From: Candidatus Melainabacteria bacterium 17Bon1m
GTDB taxonomy: Bacteria; Cyanobacteriota; Vampirovibrionia; Obscuribacterales; Obscuribacteraceae
Reading direction: 5' to 3'
Assembly: GCA_032128875.1 (NCBI GenBank)
Contig: JAVLKG010000011.1
Coordinates: 96,001-160,000 of the forward strand
DNA length: 64,000 bases
This document shows positions 9,301 through 64,000 of this stretch, in pieces. Under the pieces are notes generated by a model that was not told the origin of the DNA, made no database searches, and was given only the letters and a program-made list of their open reading frames with translations. Position 1 is the first letter of the stretch. The number at the start of each line of letters is the position of its first letter. A program made the translations under genes and the position numbers.

Positions 9301-9375
9301 GCGGGAGTAATTCAGTGGTAGAATGCCTCCTTGCCAAGGAGGATGTCGCGAGTTCGAGCCTCGTCTCCCGCTCCA
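9301..9375 (+). tRNA. tRNA-Gly (GCC), CCA encoded
   Basis: GCGGGAG/CTCCCGC acceptor stem, CCTCC-TTGCCAA-GGAGG anticodon arm, GTTCGAG T-loop, TCCA end. Confidence 0.97.
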
Positions 9376-58152: not shown

Positions 58153-59721
58153 CTATGGTTTTGCTTTGCGGAACATATTAGCCAGCATAGCGAAAAGCCC
58201 TTTCGTTTTGCCGACTGGGAACGTGCCATGCAAAAGACCAATGCCGGCTTTTGCGACCTTTACGCGTGAATCGCCATACGGATACCACCACATTCTCTCC
58301 GAGCCTGACGGCGAGTCTATGTTGATATGTTTGATGTTGCAGAGATCTTGAAGTCCAAACTGCGAATGGCTTCTTCCGAAGCCGCTCTTTTTCAGTCCAC
58401 CCCAGGGAAGTTGCGGCGCCGCATGAGAGAAGAGGCAGTCGTTCAACAGCACTGTGCCAACGTTCAGGTCTCTTGCGATACCTTCAGCACGCGCCAAATT
58501 CTTTCCCCACACCGTGGCAGTGAGACCGAATTCACTGTCATTGGCTAGTTCTACAGCTTCGTCCTCTGTGTCTACGACCATAATCGGCAAAACAGGACCG
58601 AAGCTTTCTTTCTGCATGATAGCCATTTTGTGATTGACGCCTGTCAGTATCGTGGGTTCGTAGAAGAAGCCGCCAAGGTCATCTCGGCGGTTGCCACCAG
58701 CGATAACATTCGCTCCCAGAGCACGAGCTTCGTCTACGTGCGCGATTACCTTTTCCAACTGAATTTCATCAATCACCGGTCCCAGGTCGACTGATGGATC
58801 GCCTGGATTGCCCAGCTTAAGCTCTTTTGTGTGATGGACAATTCGTTCGATCAGAGCATCGGTTTTTTTGCCTTTGATCAAATAGAGTCGTTCAATCGAC
58901 GCACATGCCTGTCCTGCATTCGTGAATGCGCCCCAGACAATGCCTCTGGCTGTCCAATCTACCGGCGCATCAGGCAGCACAATGGCAGCGTCTTTGCCGC
59001 CCAATTCCAGAGTGACTGGCGTTAGATGAGGTGCCGCTTGTGCCATCACCTTCATGCCACCTTCAACCGAGCCGGTAAAGATGAGTTTGGCTAATTTGCA
59101 GTTTGAGAGATGCTCTCCGGTTGTGCGGTCACCTGTGATGACACTGACGACATCTTTTGGAAAACCAGCAGCCTCGAAAAGTTCTCCTATTTTGATCCCT
59201 ACCAGGGGTGACTTTTCCGAGGGCTTCAGCACAACCGTGTTGCCGAGCATCACCGCCATCAGAATTGTCATCATTGGAATAGAAAACGGATAATTCCATG
59301 GCGCTATCACGCCAATCACACCCAACGGTTCGAACGCAATCAGGCTTTGCTTGCTGGAAAGCAGCGGATTCGGAAGCTGAACCATCTGGTCTTTCAACAT
59401 TCTCTCGGCGTTTTCACTGAGCCAAACGCAGGTGTCAAGCGGACCGGTAAGTTCGGAGAGGTAGCTTTCCACTCTTGGTTTGCCGACTTCGCGGCAGATG
59501 AGGTCTGCAATCTCATCTTGCTTTCTTTCAATAACTCGGCGCAATTCGAGAATTTTGCGTGCCCGCTTGTGATATTCGAGGACGTTCCAATTCTCAAAAG
59601 CCGCCCAGCTGCGCGCCACGGCAGCTTGAACCTCTGCTTGTCCGAGCACCGGTACTTCACCCAAAACCTCTTTAGTGGCTGGGTTTATAGAAACAATCGT
59701 AGCTGTTTGACTGGCGACCAT
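58153..59721 (-). CDS. Aldehyde dehydrogenase family protein
   Basis: PWNYP, FTGS, ELGGKD, GQACAS, ESFGP; start ATG 59721. Confidence 0.92.
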   Translation of the reverse strand: MVASQTATIVSINPATKEVLGEVPVLGQAEVQAAVARSWAAFENWNVLEYHKRARKILELRRVIERKQDEIADLICREVGKPRVESYLSELTGPLDTCVWLSENAERMLKDQMVQLPNPLLSSKQSLIAFEPLGVIGVIAPWNYPFSIPMMTILMAVMLGNTVVLKPSEKSPLVGIKIGELFEAAGFPKDVVSVITGDRTTGEHLSNCKLAKLIFTGSVEGGMKVMAQAAPHLTPVTLELGGKDAAIVLPDAPVDWTARGIVWGAFTNAGQACASIERLYLIKGKKTDALIERIVHHTKELKLGNPGDPSVDLGPVIDEIQLEKVIAHVDEARALGANVIAGGNRRDDLGGFFYEPTILTGVNHKMAIMQKESFGPVLPIMVVDTEDEAVELANDSEFGLTATVWGKNLARAEGIARDLNVGTVLLNDCLFSHAAPQLPWGGLKKSGFGRSHSQFGLQDLCNIKHINIDSPSGSERMWWYPYGDSRVKVAKAGIGLLHGTFPVGKTKGLFAMLANMFRKAKP

Positions 59722-59859
59722 CTTGCAATCCTGCATATGCCGGTTCTGCCCACACGCAAAAGAACCGCCCTCTGAATTGTATCTGCCCAATCCTATAAGG
59801 TGTGCCCGGGCAATGCGGTTCATTAGCTGGCTATTTTATCTGAATGCAGCGCCAACGTT

Positions 59860-61164
59860 CTATTTGTGCCCCATTCCTTCTTTTGCTTTGGCTTCATAAT
59901 CGATACCAAGAGCCTTTAGCCCCGGTACCTTCTGGCATTCCTTCGCTTCTGCAAGCGCGTCTTCGAAGCGACCGGCTTTAATGAAAGCGTCAGCCAGGCA
60001 GCTGTGAACGACCAAAAGGCTTTGATCTCCGGCCAGGGCTTGCTCGAAATTCTTTATTGCCTCTTCTGTTTCATTTCGATGCGACGCCAATTTTCCTTTG
60101 GCCAGAAGGCAGAGCGGACGTCTCTCACCCTTCTCGCCGATCTTTTTGAGGCACAGTTCAGACTCGTCCACGTTGCCCTGGTCGCTCAGGATCATCGATT
60201 TGACCGACAAAATATCTGCGTCATCGGGCGAAGCGCTGAGCAGAACGTCTACGGTGTTACGTGCTTCATCCAGGCTGTTAGAGAAAAGTTGTCCGAGCGC
60301 TTTGGCTTTGAGTGCCGACGTCGACTTCGGATATTTATCCAGTGCTTTATTCGCGGCTTGGACAGCCTCACTGTAGGCTCCGACGGACAGCACTTCGGTT
60401 GCTAGTTGGTCGAAAAATTCAGGCGGGTCGGCATCGGAGGCGAGCAAGCGGGTCACTTCGTTCTTTAGTGCGTCTGACCTGCCTGTCACTTGCAAGCTGT
60501 GCAAAGTGCGGAATTTCGCTTTTCTTGATTGCGGGTCTAGAATTGCAGCTTTTTCTCCGCACTGTTTGGCTTTGTCCATTTCGTTGAGGCGCCCATAAAG
60601 CTCGCTCAGGCTAGACCAAGCGTCGTAGGAAGTTGGATCGATTTCTGTAATCCGCACAAACTCGTCTTTGGCTGAGGATGTCTTATCCAGCGCCATCAAG
60701 GTCAGCGCATGTTGCATGTGAGCAGCAGTAGAGTTGGGGGAAATCTGGCAGGCAATTTTCGCTTCTGCTTCGGCTTCTGCTTTGGCATTTCCCAAGCGCA
60801 AAAGAATCGTCGAAAGAAGCAGGTGAAGCTGGGTATTGTGCATGCACTTTGGCGACCATGTGCGCAGAAGGTCGGCTGCTTCGGTGTTTTTCTGTCCTGC
60901 AAACAGTGTCGCCGCTTTTGCGACTGCGTCTCGGCACCCAGGTTCGTCTTTGCCATATGACGGTGCTGCTGGTTCGGCTTCAACCTCGACTTTCTTTTTG
61001 GCAAAAGCCGGCAGGCTGGATGAAACCAATGGCAGTGCGATGGATAAAACTATTGTGGCAACGGTCGCAGAAATCGGTGAATTCGCGTGCCAGCCGTGCT
61101 TTCCGTAATTCATTGTTTTAGCAAATCCCCAATATGTACAGTCATTGAGCATAGCCCATTTCAC
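59860..61164 (-). CDS. Exported TPR repeat protein
   Basis: Signal-like LPAFA cleavage site; TPR-like helices; start uncertain. Confidence 0.78.
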   Translation of the reverse strand: MKWAMLNDCTYWGFAKTMNYGKHGWHANSPISATVATIVLSIALPLVSSSLPAFAKKKVEVEAEPAAPSYGKDEPGCRDAVAKAATLFAGQKNTEAADLLRTWSPKCMHNTQLHLLLSTILLRLGNAKAEAEAEAKIACQISPNSTAAHMQHALTLMALDKTSSAKDEFVRITEIDPTSYDAWSSLSELYGRLNEMDKAKQCGEKAAILDPQSRKAKFRTLHSLQVTGRSDALKNEVTRLLASDADPPEFFDQLATEVLSVGAYSEAVQAANKALDKYPKSTSALKAKALGQLFSNSLDEARNTVDVLLSASPDDADILSVKSMILSDQGNVDESELCLKKIGEKGERRPLCLLAKGKLASHRNETEEAIKNFEQALAGDQSLLVVHSCLADAFIKAGRFEDALAEAKECQKVPGLKALGIDYEAKAKEGMGHK

Positions 61165-61215
61165 TTCTGGGTGCCTTCATTTGCACGGGTTATCAACATG
61201 TCCTAAACTGAAGCA

Positions 61216-62388
61216 TTGGCAAAGCTGACCGAATCGACGATGGCAAATTTATTGGAAACTCGGCACCCTGCTTCGGGAAATCAAAAGCGAAATCTTTCAG
61301 GTTCGTCGAACTTGCTGCTAGTTTGTGCCTTTTGTTTGGCACTTGTTACCATGCAACCAGCGCTTGCAGACAAGGCTGACAGCAGCAGCGAAGACCTGCT
61401 TCAGAAAGCGGAAAAACTCTATCTCGAAAGAAAGATGGGTGAAGCCGCAAGTTATCTGAACACGGTCATTTCTGCCGACGCCAAGAACGGTCGTGCGCAT
61501 AATTTGCTCGGCAAGATTTATCATCGGCAAGGAAAAGTAGAACTCGCAATGGCCGAGTATCACAAAGCAATTGACAGTGATGCGCGCCTGGCAGATGCTC
61601 GTTATAACTTGGGTGTTGCACTTATTGACCAGGACAATTTCAGAGAGGCCGAGCGCTATCTTGATGATGCCGTCAGGCTTGACGGGCGCTCAGCTGAAGC
61701 TCACTACAATCTGGGACTTTGCGCCGACAATTTAGAGAAGTACGAAAAAGCGTTGGACGAGTTTCAAAAGGCAGTGAAGATTGATCCAGCGACTGCGGAA
61801 ATGCGTTATTGCCTCGGGCGCGCTTATTACAAGATGAAGATGTTCGACAAAGCCGTTGAGGAGTACAAAGCGGCGCTGAACATCAACCCGAAATATGTTG
61901 AAGCGCATAACAATCTTGGTGTCGCATATAGTGACCTGGGTAAGTATCCTGAGTCGATTGCTGAGTTTCAGATTGCTCTTAAAATAGAGCCTAATTATCC
62001 GGAAGCTCAGCGCAATCTTGGATACGCTCAAGCGCACACCAGTCTTGGTATCACTTATTTCAAGCAGGGGAATGCTCGAAAAGCGTTCGAAGAATACAGA
62101 AAGGCTATTAAGATAGATCCTGAGTTCGCCGATGCGCACTACAACCTCGGCATTTACTATCAACAGCAAGGGCAGATTACAACAGCGATTGGGCACTATC
62201 AGGCTGCAATCAAGTTCGACCCCAAAAATGCTCAGGCGCACAATAATTTGGGCGTCGCTTACTCGCGTTTGGGCAAACGCGATCTGGCTGAAGCAGAATA
62301 TCGCCAGGCTTTGAAACTGAAACCGGACTATCGCGAAGCAAATGAGAATCTGCAGTCGTTAAAACTCGGACCGGGCGCAAGAAGGTAG
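61216..62388 (+). CDS. Exported TPR repeat protein
   Basis: QPALA signal-peptide end; regular AEAHYNLG/AHNNLGVAY repeats. Confidence 0.88.
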   Translation: MAKLTESTMANLLETRHPASGNQKRNLSGSSNLLLVCAFCLALVTMQPALADKADSSSEDLLQKAEKLYLERKMGEAASYLNTVISADAKNGRAHNLLGKIYHRQGKVELAMAEYHKAIDSDARLADARYNLGVALIDQDNFREAERYLDDAVRLDGRSAEAHYNLGLCADNLEKYEKALDEFQKAVKIDPATAEMRYCLGRAYYKMKMFDKAVEEYKAALNINPKYVEAHNNLGVAYSDLGKYPESIAEFQIALKIEPNYPEAQRNLGYAQAHTSLGITYFKQGNARKAFEEYRKAIKIDPEFADAHYNLGIYYQQQGQITTAIGHYQAAIKFDPKNAQAHNNLGVAYSRLGKRDLAEAEYRQALKLKPDYREANENLQSLKLGPGARR

Positions 62389-62408
62389 GCGCCCACGTCT
62401 ATTGTCGC

Positions 62409-62535
62409 AAAAAGGCAGCACGACTACCTGCCACCAAATGAGTGCACAGAGCCCCTCCAGTTGCGCGAGGGCCCTAGGCAACACTCGCGCATAGGGCGTG
62501 GCACTCGCTTCACCGGGCAGTGCGCAAAATCCTAT
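62409..62535 (-). ncRNA. Putative unannotated ~125-nt structured small RNA
   Basis: Lies between a consensus promoter and a GGCAG/CTGCC-TTTTT terminator; internal stems TGCGCGAG/CTCGCGCA and GAGTG/CACTC; no credible ORF. Confidence 0.62.
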
Positions 62536-62541
62536 ATATGC

Positions 62542-62569
62542 ATTATACATACAATCGTATGGGTGTCAA
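62542..62569 (-). promoter_or_regulatory. Consensus sigma70 promoter
   Basis: Minus strand TTGACA-cccatacgattgtatg(16)-TATAAT. Confidence 0.75.
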
Positions 62570-62595
62570 ACAGAGTTAATGATGCAGGCGCGTTT

Positions 62596-64000
62596 TTATC
62601 TGTCTGTTTTTTTCTTCGCCGGCCTATCTGTTAGGTCTGCATCGTTGCCCTTTGCTTGATGAATTTCTACCGGGTAGCTGATTATCAATTTGCGCGGCTT
62701 CGTACCCTTTGGCGGATGCGCAACGGCGCAAAGCCAAGACCCGGTCGTGTTGCCGCGCCAGACGCACCGTCCGTTGGCATCTGCCGTCAGGTCATCGGTT
62801 ATCTCAACAGGCTTTTTTAGTGGAACCGGAAACTTGTTTTCGACAGGAGTGACACCACGATCGGTGCCTGCATAAAGAGTGACTTTTGAACCCGGGACAA
62901 CGTTGGCTATTTTTGCAACGACCTTTTCTTTTTTGAAGGCAGAGAGCACGTTTTCGGTAATCGGCACAATCCGTGATGGTAACTGCGGTCTTATTGAAGG
63001 GTGCGCTTCCAAATACTGTCTAAATGGAATTCCGACACGCTCGGGTGTGTTGACTATGTTCTTCGCATCCTTGAAGTCATAACCTTCACCGGATTGGAAT
63101 GTGTAGTTATTGATCGCGACTTTGTATTCGCTGCTCTCATCTACTGGACTGTAAGAGCCATCTTTGTCTTCAGCAAGAGCAAAAACAAGTCGCTCCCCGC
63201 GTTTTCTGGTTGGATCGTAGCCAATTTTGAGCCCATGCACATCCAGAAATCTGCCGCCTGCGGGGCCGGACACACTGTGCTCAATAGCGCCCAGCAGCGC
63301 TTTTCCTTTAATGGTTGCGAATGTGAGGCGATTGTCGAAAGGCAAAATTTCTTGAACTTTTTCAAGCGATATCGGGCCCTTTTCAATACGACCACGCATC
63401 CCACCTCTATTGTGTACGCTTATCGTTGTTCCATATGATTTGCCTGCTTCACAGAGCGCATCCGTGATTAGATCTCCCAGCGCGGAATCCCATGGATAGG
63501 ATGTCCAACGATTATCGAAGGCGTCTTCTGCTTGAGAAACTATTGTGCGGCGTAGCGGAAGAAGTGGTTCTACCTTCTTATCTATGTACGCCTTCATTGC
63601 AGGATCTTCCGGTATTTTGTCGGTGATATTGATGAGCCTGTATTTAGTGTCGGCCGCATCCATTCTGCCGTCTTTGTCAAAGGCTAGATCAAGCCGCCCA
63701 AGCGTTCGCCCGTAGCTTCCTGTCTGTACGATTATGGTTTTCGAGCTGTCATCGTGCTCTACAAAAATTGCTTTGTCTAGACGGGTGTGGCTGTGTCCAC
63801 CGATGATGACGTCAATTTCCGGAATCGCTTGAGATATTTGTTGGTCGAAGTCTGTACCGCAATGCGTCACAGCGACGATGTGATTGACGCCTTTGCTCTC
63901 TATTTCTTTGACTGTTTCTCTAACAGGAATCAGCCAGTCATCATTCACGTGCTTGACTTTTACGCCTCCCAGGGAGAGTGAAAGGCGCTCTAATTCCGGT
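62596..64000 (-). CDS. Bifunctional metallophosphatase/5'-nucleotidase (5' end outside window)
   Basis: VTHCG, DVIIGGHSHT, LGDLITDA, NRGGMRG, LPFDN; frame is open to the window edge. Confidence 0.9.
   Translation of the reverse strand, partial: PELERLSLSLGGVKVKHVNDDWLIPVRETVKEIESKGVNHIVAVTHCGTDFDQQISQAIPEIDVIIGGHSHTRLDKAIFVEHDDSSKTIIVQTGSYGRTLGRLDLAFDKDGRMDAADTKYRLINITDKIPEDPAMKAYIDKKVEPLLPLRRTIVSQAEDAFDNRWTSYPWDSALGDLITDALCEAGKSYGTTISVHNRGGMRGRIEKGPISLEKVQEILPFDNRLTFATIKGKALLGAIEHSVSGPAGGRFLDVHGLKIGYDPTRKRGERLVFALAEDKDGSYSPVDESSEYKVAINNYTFQSGEGYDFKDAKNIVNTPERVGIPFRQYLEAHPSIRPQLPSRIVPITENVLSAFKKEKVVAKIANVVPGSKVTLYAGTDRGVTPVENKFPVPLKKPVEITDDLTADANGRCVWRGNTTGSWLCAVAHPPKGTKPRKLIISYPVEIHQAKGNDADLTDRPAKKKTDR

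Follow-up and report, generated by a model that had tools for sequence, protein, structure and literature searches.

The subject of this study is a short intergenic unit on the minus strand of a stretch of 64,000 nucleotides (nt) from Candidatus Melainabacteria bacterium 17Bon1m (contig JAVLKG010000011.1, positions 96,001 to 160,000), here referred to as the window. The unit is probably a stand-alone gene for a structured small RNA (sRNA), one of five paralogs in this genome, whose promoter would be gated by LexA and whose product would act in trans. It is located between a 5'-nucleotidase-like gene on the same strand (stop at 62596) and a TPR gene on the opposite strand (end at 62388). The predicted RNA is GC-rich, about 127 nt long and runs on the minus strand from 62535 to about 62409. 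An earlier note, made from this single copy, had described an orphan transcription unit for a novel sRNA or an attenuator, and as a sequence feature this observation was confirmed. Our reading rests on the conservation of multiple copies, on the conservation of the promoter together with a dyad in its spacer, on three covarying helices and on a palindrome that the promoter shares with lexA and further SOS genes. Transcription, the exact ends, LexA binding, induction by DNA damage and the action of the RNA are predictions from the sequence.

We counted the feature as real because it is conserved across copies and not on the ground of chance tests with the single copy. Within 60500-64000 two promoter-like sites were present (3.0 ± 1.6 by chance) as well as five terminator-like sites (4.6 ± 2.1 by chance).

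The earlier note had proposed a search for relatives, and BLAST matches were obtained both in the genome itself and in related genomes. Related stretches were found at four other places of the own genome. Among 41 genomes (the own one and 40 relatives) 14 had matches, including 11 of the 12 other genomes of the same genus. A nhmmer profile recovered five full copies in the own genome with E-values from 2e-45 to 2e-22, namely the present one on contig C11, two on C5 and one each on C2 and C1. The unit is thus no orphan but a member of a multi-copy family. Outside the conserved parts the paralogs are about 70% alike, and the ortholog L006 is 92% identical to the copy studied here. The loci L001, L006, L009, L010, L022, L014 and L082 share a common downstream gene end and therefore occupy orthologous positions, as judged by eye.

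An exact scan for the core hairpin through one genome each of 185,579 species yielded 68 loci in 15 assemblies, counted by accession prefix. All 68 were located in metagenome-assembled genomes titled Obscuribacterales, Obscuribacteraceae, Melainabacteria, Cyanobacteria or "bacterium". With a covariance model of the core, approximately 100 copies were detected in the family Obscuribacteraceae (assigned by record titles). They were distributed over 18 of 101 genomes and 5 of 37 genera, and each genome with matches had 1 to 21 of them. The other genomes searched, many of which are incomplete, gave no match, and no match was found in viral contigs. Judged by these searches, the predicted RNA family is restricted to a few genera of the Obscuribacteraceae within the non-photosynthetic Melainabacteria/Vampirovibrionia.

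The promoter TTGACA-N16-TATAAT of the earlier description was present on the minus strand with 12 of 12 consensus positions. A consensus scan placed the -35 hexamer TTGACA at 62564-62569 and the -10 hexamer TATAAT at 62542-62547. A TTGAC-like -35 hexamer was found in most of 73 unique copies and TATAAT in 56 of them. The 16-nt spacer contains a palindrome of 14 base pairs (bp), CATAC-GATT-GTATG (62561-62548), which abuts the -10 hexamer and thus overlaps the core promoter region. This dyad had been noticed before and left uninterpreted; here it is predicted to be a LexA (SOS) box. It was exact in 63 of the 73 unique copies and carried one mismatch in the remaining 10.

A conserved AUAGG starts exactly 6 nt past the -10 hexamer in 63 of 68 copies, and the 6 nt in between are variable. 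Since the conservation of the RNA begins where transcription is expected, we infer a start at A62535, the first A of AUAGGA, which agrees with the start near 62535 suggested previously.

The dyad recurs at genes of the damage response. In the exact form it occurs 13 times in the genome (about 7 expected), and five of these sites are the sRNA promoters. Further exact sites are located about 150 nt upstream of dnaE2, which encodes an error-prone polymerase (NF004225, 998 bits, cut-off 939), and 34 nt upstream of ssb (TIGR00621, 84 bits, cut-off 54). A site with one mismatch (T for the first C) lies about 90 nt upstream of an imuA-like open reading frame (ORF) with weak ImuA and RecA-family matches. 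Another site of this form overlaps the -10 region of the lexA promoter. The lexA gene itself (C11:69668-70312; TIGR00498, 170 bits) is located on the same contig about 26 kb before the start of the window. Its palindrome TATACTTACGTATG was found at L092:1377-1390 (G000:C11:69544-69557), where it overlaps a TATACT -10-like hexamer.

For a wider comparison lexA was taken from 29 genomes of 29 genera including the own one, and the 26 genomes with near-full-length matches were scanned. ACTATAC-N4-GTATG preceded the lexA match by 41 to 190 nt in 25 of the 26 genera, and the 26th carried a one-mismatch variant. In 25 of 26 genera the palindrome was the most conserved element upstream of lexA. When lexA shares its palindrome with imuA, dnaE2 and ssb, this classically indicates a LexA regulon under its own control. 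Because the palindrome is kept at lexA and found again at the imuA-like ORF, dnaE2 and ssb, the dyad is most likely the LexA box of this lineage, and the RNAs are predicted to be members of its SOS regulon. Since the box is present at lexA also in genera that lack the RNA, it probably predates the RNA family, and the latter would have been recruited to it.

According to excerpts of PMC3091678, the cyanobacterial and Gram-positive LexA box reads RGTACNNNDGTWCB / AGTACWNWTGTACT. The element found here resembles it in its length of 14 bp, its two 5-bp arms around a 4-bp centre, the AC-N4-GT core and the position upstream of lexA. However, the arms are YATAC/GTATR in the lineage studied here and not AGTAC/GTACT.

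Comparison of the copies supported three helices within the RNA, each backed by compensatory changes. The first one, here named P1, is formed by AUAGG at the 5' end (62531-62535) and CCUAU (62491-62495), the latter directly 5' of the core hairpin P3. For P1, counted on anchored positions, 229 of 294 cells were paired compared with 216.8 ± 2.8 in shuffles, and none of 2000 shuffles reached the observed value. Its second pair was U-A in 32, U-G in 6 and C-G in 5 of 49 distinct combinations. In the covariance-model alignment A3 the 5' end is placed wrongly for about 25 long copies; A3 was therefore used only for the other two helices.

The hairpin P3 (62463-62490) consists of GCGCGAG, a 14-nt loop and CUCGCGC and is nearly invariant. 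Among 73 distinct rows 98.9% of the cells were paired, and three inner pairs extend the stem beyond GCGCGAG/CUCGCGC. Five of the ten pairs never varied in the 73 rows. Three pairs showed changes on both sides, for example in GCGUGAU/AUCACGC and GCGCUAG/CUAGCGC.

The third helix is a long-range one, CUGCC(C)/(G)GGCAG, in which CUGCC (62516-62520), about 16 nt from the 5' end of the RNA, pairs with GGCAG (62432-62428). The latter belongs to a conserved 3' motif, (G)GGCAG-GUA-NNN-GYGYUG (62416-62432), that was recognized in the alignments. All seven pairs of the long-range helix had a both-side change in at least one copy and 76.9% of the cells were paired in an alignment that had not been fitted to the helix; another count found both-side changes in five of the seven pairs. 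For the long-range helix and P3 together, none of 500 shuffles reached the observed values on four of five measures in each count, and slid controls were far lower. Additionally, the 5' and 3' domains paired somewhat better within a copy than with unrelated copies (-28.4 versus -26.1 kcal/mol), and the within-copy pairing was among the best 5% in 12 of 68 copies.

Since the long-range helix crosses P1, the fold would be either pseudoknotted or alternating with a rod. Between the 5' strand of the long-range helix and the 3' strand of P1 a variable domain is located (62496-62515), which forms a local hairpin in most copies and ranges from 20 to 80 nt across the family according to alignments inspected by eye.

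The pairings listed in the earlier note were those of the minimum-free-energy fold of this copy. This structural description holds for the present copy, but not across the family, where the GCCCU/GGGGC helix and the T tract turned out to be copy-specific. Across copies 206 of 331 cells of GCCCU/GGGGC were paired, a value reached by 244 of 1000 shuffles. A 3-bp UGC/GCA hairpin proposed by RNAalifold showed some covariation but excludes the better-supported long-range helix, and it was left as an alternative. A further short helix GCA/UGC, connecting the 5' region with the UGCGCGC motif, was weak: it was paired in 70% of cells and hardly covaried.

The strongest covariation in the RNA was found in the loop of P3. 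Here, a self-complementary hexamer, CCUAGG in the present copy (62473-62478), is replaced by CCCGGG in other copies. The central dinucleotide was CG in 52 and TA in 20 copies (72 of the 73 unique copies were matched by the motif pattern), never TG or CA, with a mutual information of 0.90. On a tree of the copies built without these two columns the loop switched its state at least four times, and at least three switches were forced by well-supported branches. No other position of the RNA tracked the loop state. Because two adjacent bases stay self-complementary, the loop could serve for the kissing of two loops or be read by a symmetric partner. The dimerisation initiation site of HIV-1 carries a 6-nt loop palindrome in two alternative versions and kisses an identical RNA. 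The loop described here likewise has a 6-nt palindrome in two self-complementary versions; this is an analogy only, as organism, size and context are unrelated.

The 3' end was less uniform. In the present copy a terminator-like hairpin (62435-62414) followed by TTTTT (62413-62409) was seen as described earlier. A run of at least four T directly after the last hairpin was present in only 16 of 68 copies, and the tract was absent even from the ortholog L006. In the terminal hairpin only three pairs (CAG/YUG) can form across copies; they showed no covariation, and 363 of 1000 shuffles reached the observed value. A conserved 5-bp terminator stem thus had no support across copies. Some clades (L049, L033, L051, L040, L066 and others) carried an extra motif CCGGTCAAAAT(C/T)C, 30 to 45 nt past GYGYUGG. 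The RNA may be longer in these clades, or a second element may follow downstream.

From these features the following course of events can be proposed. A LexA dimer bound to CATAC-N4-GTATG would fill the spacer, touch the -10 hexamer and keep the consensus sigma-70 promoter off. After DNA damage, RecA-stimulated self-cleavage of LexA would let the promoter fire, so that all copies would be induced together. The RNA would start at AUAGGA and its 5' end would pair with CCUAU beside P3 to form P1, while CUGCC(C) would pair with (G)GGCAG across P1, giving a pseudoknotted or rod-like fold. The loop of P3 would then offer the self-complementary CCYRGG, through which two RNAs could kiss or which a symmetric partner could read. 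The RNA would finally act in trans via its invariant hairpin and the conserved 3' motif.

Several results weigh against this proposal. The fold of the present copy (-51.3 kcal/mol) was no more stable than those of shuffled sequences (z = -0.27), since 69 of 200 shuffles were equal or better. P1 competes with a full rod fold, and GGGCAG furthermore has an alternative 3-bp partner UGC, with U-A in 34, C-G in 3 and U-G in 3 of 42 cases, so that the overall fold given here is tentative. Related copies are not independent, so that the shuffle tests overstate significance. A canonical terminator was not conserved across copies.

The same applies to the data from RNA runs. At least half of the sampled words of this DNA were contained in 16 runs. 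Three of them, X2-X4, are recorded as RNA-Seq and hold the locus in full; they gave contigs of 22 to 33 kb and a flat depth over 62150-62850. These runs resemble DNA libraries, or RNA libraries in which much DNA was carried over, and are uninformative on transcription; their sample is possibly the source of the DNA studied here. In the lake metatranscriptome X20, a single contig of 297 nt with a depth of 10.8 covered a sister copy with flanks identical to an L008-type copy. Its ends lie some 33 nt before the predicted start and some 125 nt beyond the 3' motif, so that it exceeds the predicted RNA on both sides. This contig suggests, though only weakly, that loci of this kind are set off from their surroundings.

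Neither an mRNA target nor a partner was found in searches with the complement of the loop and with ftsZ. Perfect complements of the P3 loop with a length of 10 to 12 nt turned up almost exclusively at the RNA loci themselves, and 9-mer sites near possible start codons looked like noise. The start region of ftsZ paired no better than background (0.42 to 0.76 of 41 windows were equal or better, by crude whole-length duplex energies).

The regulator is the part of the reading that is most open to another interpretation. The same transcribed RNA family could use the dyad as an operator for some regulator different from LexA, or as a promoter element without any repressor, and would then stand outside the damage response; we regard this as unlikely. 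Several properties of the box would fit such a view and speak against a LexA box. No box was found at recA of the own genome at up to two mismatches. Boxes under relaxed criteria totalled 20, fewer than the compositional expectation of 29. At least one exact site lies between TetR-like and efflux genes and may serve another regulator, and exact sites also adjoin hypA-hypB and an SRPBCC ORF. The binding of LexA to the box is itself a prediction.

Because the total is below expectation, the assignment to LexA is based on the location of the boxes and not on their number. Of the 20 sites found under relaxed criteria, only 3 or 4 fall inside long ORFs. Against another regulator stand the conservation upstream of lexA and the recurrence at the imuA-like ORF, dnaE2 and ssb, together with a layout that fits the LexA box given in excerpts of PMC3091678. 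The site at the hyp genes can be accommodated as well, since these excerpts also report cyanobacterial LexA at hydrogenase genes. This site is an extended perfect palindrome, GTCATAC-TTAA-GTATGAC (G000:C1:440764-440777), located between hypA/hypB-like genes, named from printed sequences, and an ORF rich in cysteine motifs, and it recalls the reported link between LexA and hydrogenase (PMC3091678, in part).

Two further boxes deserve mention. The box of the imuA-like ORF (G000:C2:626928-626941; L095:1313-1326) and that of dnaE2 (G000:C2:633522-633535) are about 6 kb apart, and the region looks like an SOS-controlled mutagenesis cassette. A variant of the box, TATACTATCGTATG, at G000:C2:126712-126725 precedes by 156 nt the gene of an AAA ATPase that partially matches PtuA, an anti-phage effector associated with retrons (107 bits, under the cut-off). 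Here, a defence gene may be under SOS control.

A second alternative accepts the RNA and assigns another role to it, either as part of a complex with protein (sponge or scaffold) or as a ribozyme instead of a base-pairing regulator. The stem of P3 is kept in its sequence, with half of its pairs invariant, which suggests sequence-specific recognition. The order of elements (5' strand of P1, 5' strand of the long-range helix, hairpin, 3' strand of P1, hairpin, 3' strand of the long-range helix) corresponds to a nested double pseudoknot, and no mRNA target stood out. However, no protein gene was consistently adjacent, and neither a ribozyme nor any other Rfam model matched. In the comparison with Rfam proposed in the earlier note, the whole window was scanned with Rfam 15 at gathering scores and no family was found at the locus; the sole match in the window was a tRNA gene at 9301-9372 (plus strand, 66.1 bits). 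A permissive scan of 62250-62750 returned only two snoRNA models at chance level (E 5.6 and 5.7), far under their gathering scores. We therefore consider this role decidedly unlikely. The lack of an Rfam match also supports the claim of a novel sRNA, together with the conserved promoter of its own, the conservation from the predicted start and the covarying helices.

Known classes of RNA were rejected as well. In ribozymes of the HDV type a nested double pseudoknot begins at the cleavage site with a G-U pair; its P3/L3 core is short and conserved, and its P4 varies. The helices of the present RNA follow a similar order, but the first pair was A-U in 44 of 49 combinations. Moreover, the hairpin at the position of P3 in the HDV-like fold is the variable one and that at the position of P4 the invariant one, the reverse of what such a fold has. 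A 6S RNA, for which genomes usually have a single gene, was dismissed as well: the locus has no 6S match, and the 6S RNA of this genome is encoded elsewhere (L124, G000:C7:122687-122898, minus strand; 48.4 bits, just above the gathering score). With regard to Y RNAs, which co-occur with an Rsr/Ro (TROVE) protein and have a stem made of their 5' and 3' ends, no TROVE/Rsr gene was found in the genome, which is 93% complete, and the 5' end pairs internally and not with the 3' end.

A third possibility is a cis-acting device, in which the gene on the opposite strand is silenced by strong convergent transcription or because a weak stop is read through. The earlier note had similarly considered an attenuator whose read-through would be antisense to the TPR gene. 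In all five copies of the own genome the downstream gene is convergent, and its stop either coincides with the 3' end of the element or is at most a few tens of bases away. Among the 68 loci, judged from short flanks, 13 were convergent and 3 co-directional, and the other 52 were undecidable. The absence of the T tract from most copies would suit a cis device, too, and so would the two alternative pairings of GGGCAG, one with the 5' CUGCC and one inside the 3' hairpin. The convergent genes are unrelated, however: they encode a TPR protein, a membrane protein, a DUF62-like protein, an RND pump and again a TPR protein. Only the TPR gene of the window was run against Pfam, and the other four were named from printed sequences. 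If the effect were purely in cis, paralogs with about 70% similarity elsewhere would not be expected to retain a constant hairpin, a loop palindrome and three helices with covariation. Such a device is accordingly rated very unlikely.

A leader with riboswitch or attenuator function was rejected, since the downstream genes are convergent and unrelated and none of the five own copies has a co-directional gene to control. The attenuator of the earlier note was abandoned for the same reasons, and its terminator is not a feature of the family.

Hardly credible, finally, is a repeated element that acts as DNA (a mobile remnant or a protein-binding palindrome) or a small protein gene: the copies are multiple and intergenic, CCTAGG and CCCGGG are DNA palindromes and two ORFs exist, one of 63 amino acids (62359-62550, minus strand) and one of 22 codons starting at the AUG of CCCUAUG, but several copies lie at conserved orthologous positions (by eye), no terminal repeats were noticed, though no search for them was made, and the compensatory changes maintain RNA pairs including G-U, which would be meaningless in DNA. 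The absence of viral-contig matches likewise led us to reject a phage or mobile origin. A small protein or type I toxin gene was rejected, without a formal test of coding potential, because the longer ORF starts inside the box and the -10 hexamer and because one-base indels in the linker shift the frame between copies; the UA-to-CG switch in the loop would also alter a codon.

The LexA-gated, trans-acting sRNA proposed here can be compared with known systems. In E. coli, IstR-2 at tisAB is reportedly a small RNA controlled by LexA. The Klebsiella sRNA DinR is LexA-gated, processed from the dinI mRNA, Hfq-dependent and represses ftsZ, and other SOS-linked non-coding RNAs belong to toxin-antitoxin pairs (PMC10907235, in excerpts). 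LexA peaks at two sRNAs in chromatin immunoprecipitation have been described for M. tuberculosis, according to an excerpted report. As with DinR and IstR-2, synthesis of the sRNA would be gated by a LexA box in the promoter, predicted in the present case, and would form a non-coding arm of the SOS response. Unlike these two, the RNA described here is stand-alone, occurs in 1 to 21 copies, shares no common sequence with them and has no linked toxin ORF. Its palindromic loop, too, sets it apart from all the systems just named. It also differs from DinR in pairing to ftsZ no better than to a small background set.

Families of sibling sRNAs under one regulator include Qrr1-5, the csRNAs, LhrC1-5 and the cyanobacterial Yfr2. 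The paralogs found here resemble such families in having a common promoter with its operator and a common hairpin motif, in being variable elsewhere and in lying between unrelated genes. They are set apart by LexA as the predicted regulator, by another sequence and fold, by the lack of an Rfam match and by a copy number of up to 21. In addition, their conserved loop is self-complementary and not an obvious anti-Shine-Dalgarno seed.

A bolder extension of the LexA-gated sRNA is speculative and has a small, yet appreciable chance of being right. Up to 21 near-identical promoters would flood the cell after damage with a pseudoknotted RNA that kisses through its palindromic loop. The resulting dimers or assemblies would be a new type of SOS effector which might, for example, capture a nucleic acid or some factor needed for repair or division. 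If true, this battery of kissing RNAs would represent an RNA-based arm of the SOS response without a described counterpart.

Stand-alone sRNA genes that are directly gated by LexA are rare. With five to 21 copies under common control in each genome, the family would give a damage response an exceptionally high output of RNA. Our literature search found no non-coding RNA for Melainabacteria/Vampirovibrionia or Obscuribacter and nothing that combines LexA with these groups. The locus thus gives candidates for both a non-coding RNA and a LexA box in Melainabacteria/Vampirovibrionia. Furthermore, the putative box YATAC-N4-GTATR allows the SOS regulon of the lineage to be mapped computationally.

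With regard to the genes around the copies, an ORF of 146 amino acids (G000:C2:444360-444800), resembling a PemK/MazF-type toxin as judged by eye, is located just upstream of the copy on contig C2 and is co-directional with it. In the window, the TPR gene beside the unit (61216-62388, plus strand, checked against Pfam) has a second TPR-repeat gene as its neighbour on the opposite strand (59860-61164, minus strand), so that the pair spans 59860-62388. This pair is in turn adjoined by an aldehyde dehydrogenase gene (58153-59823, minus strand).

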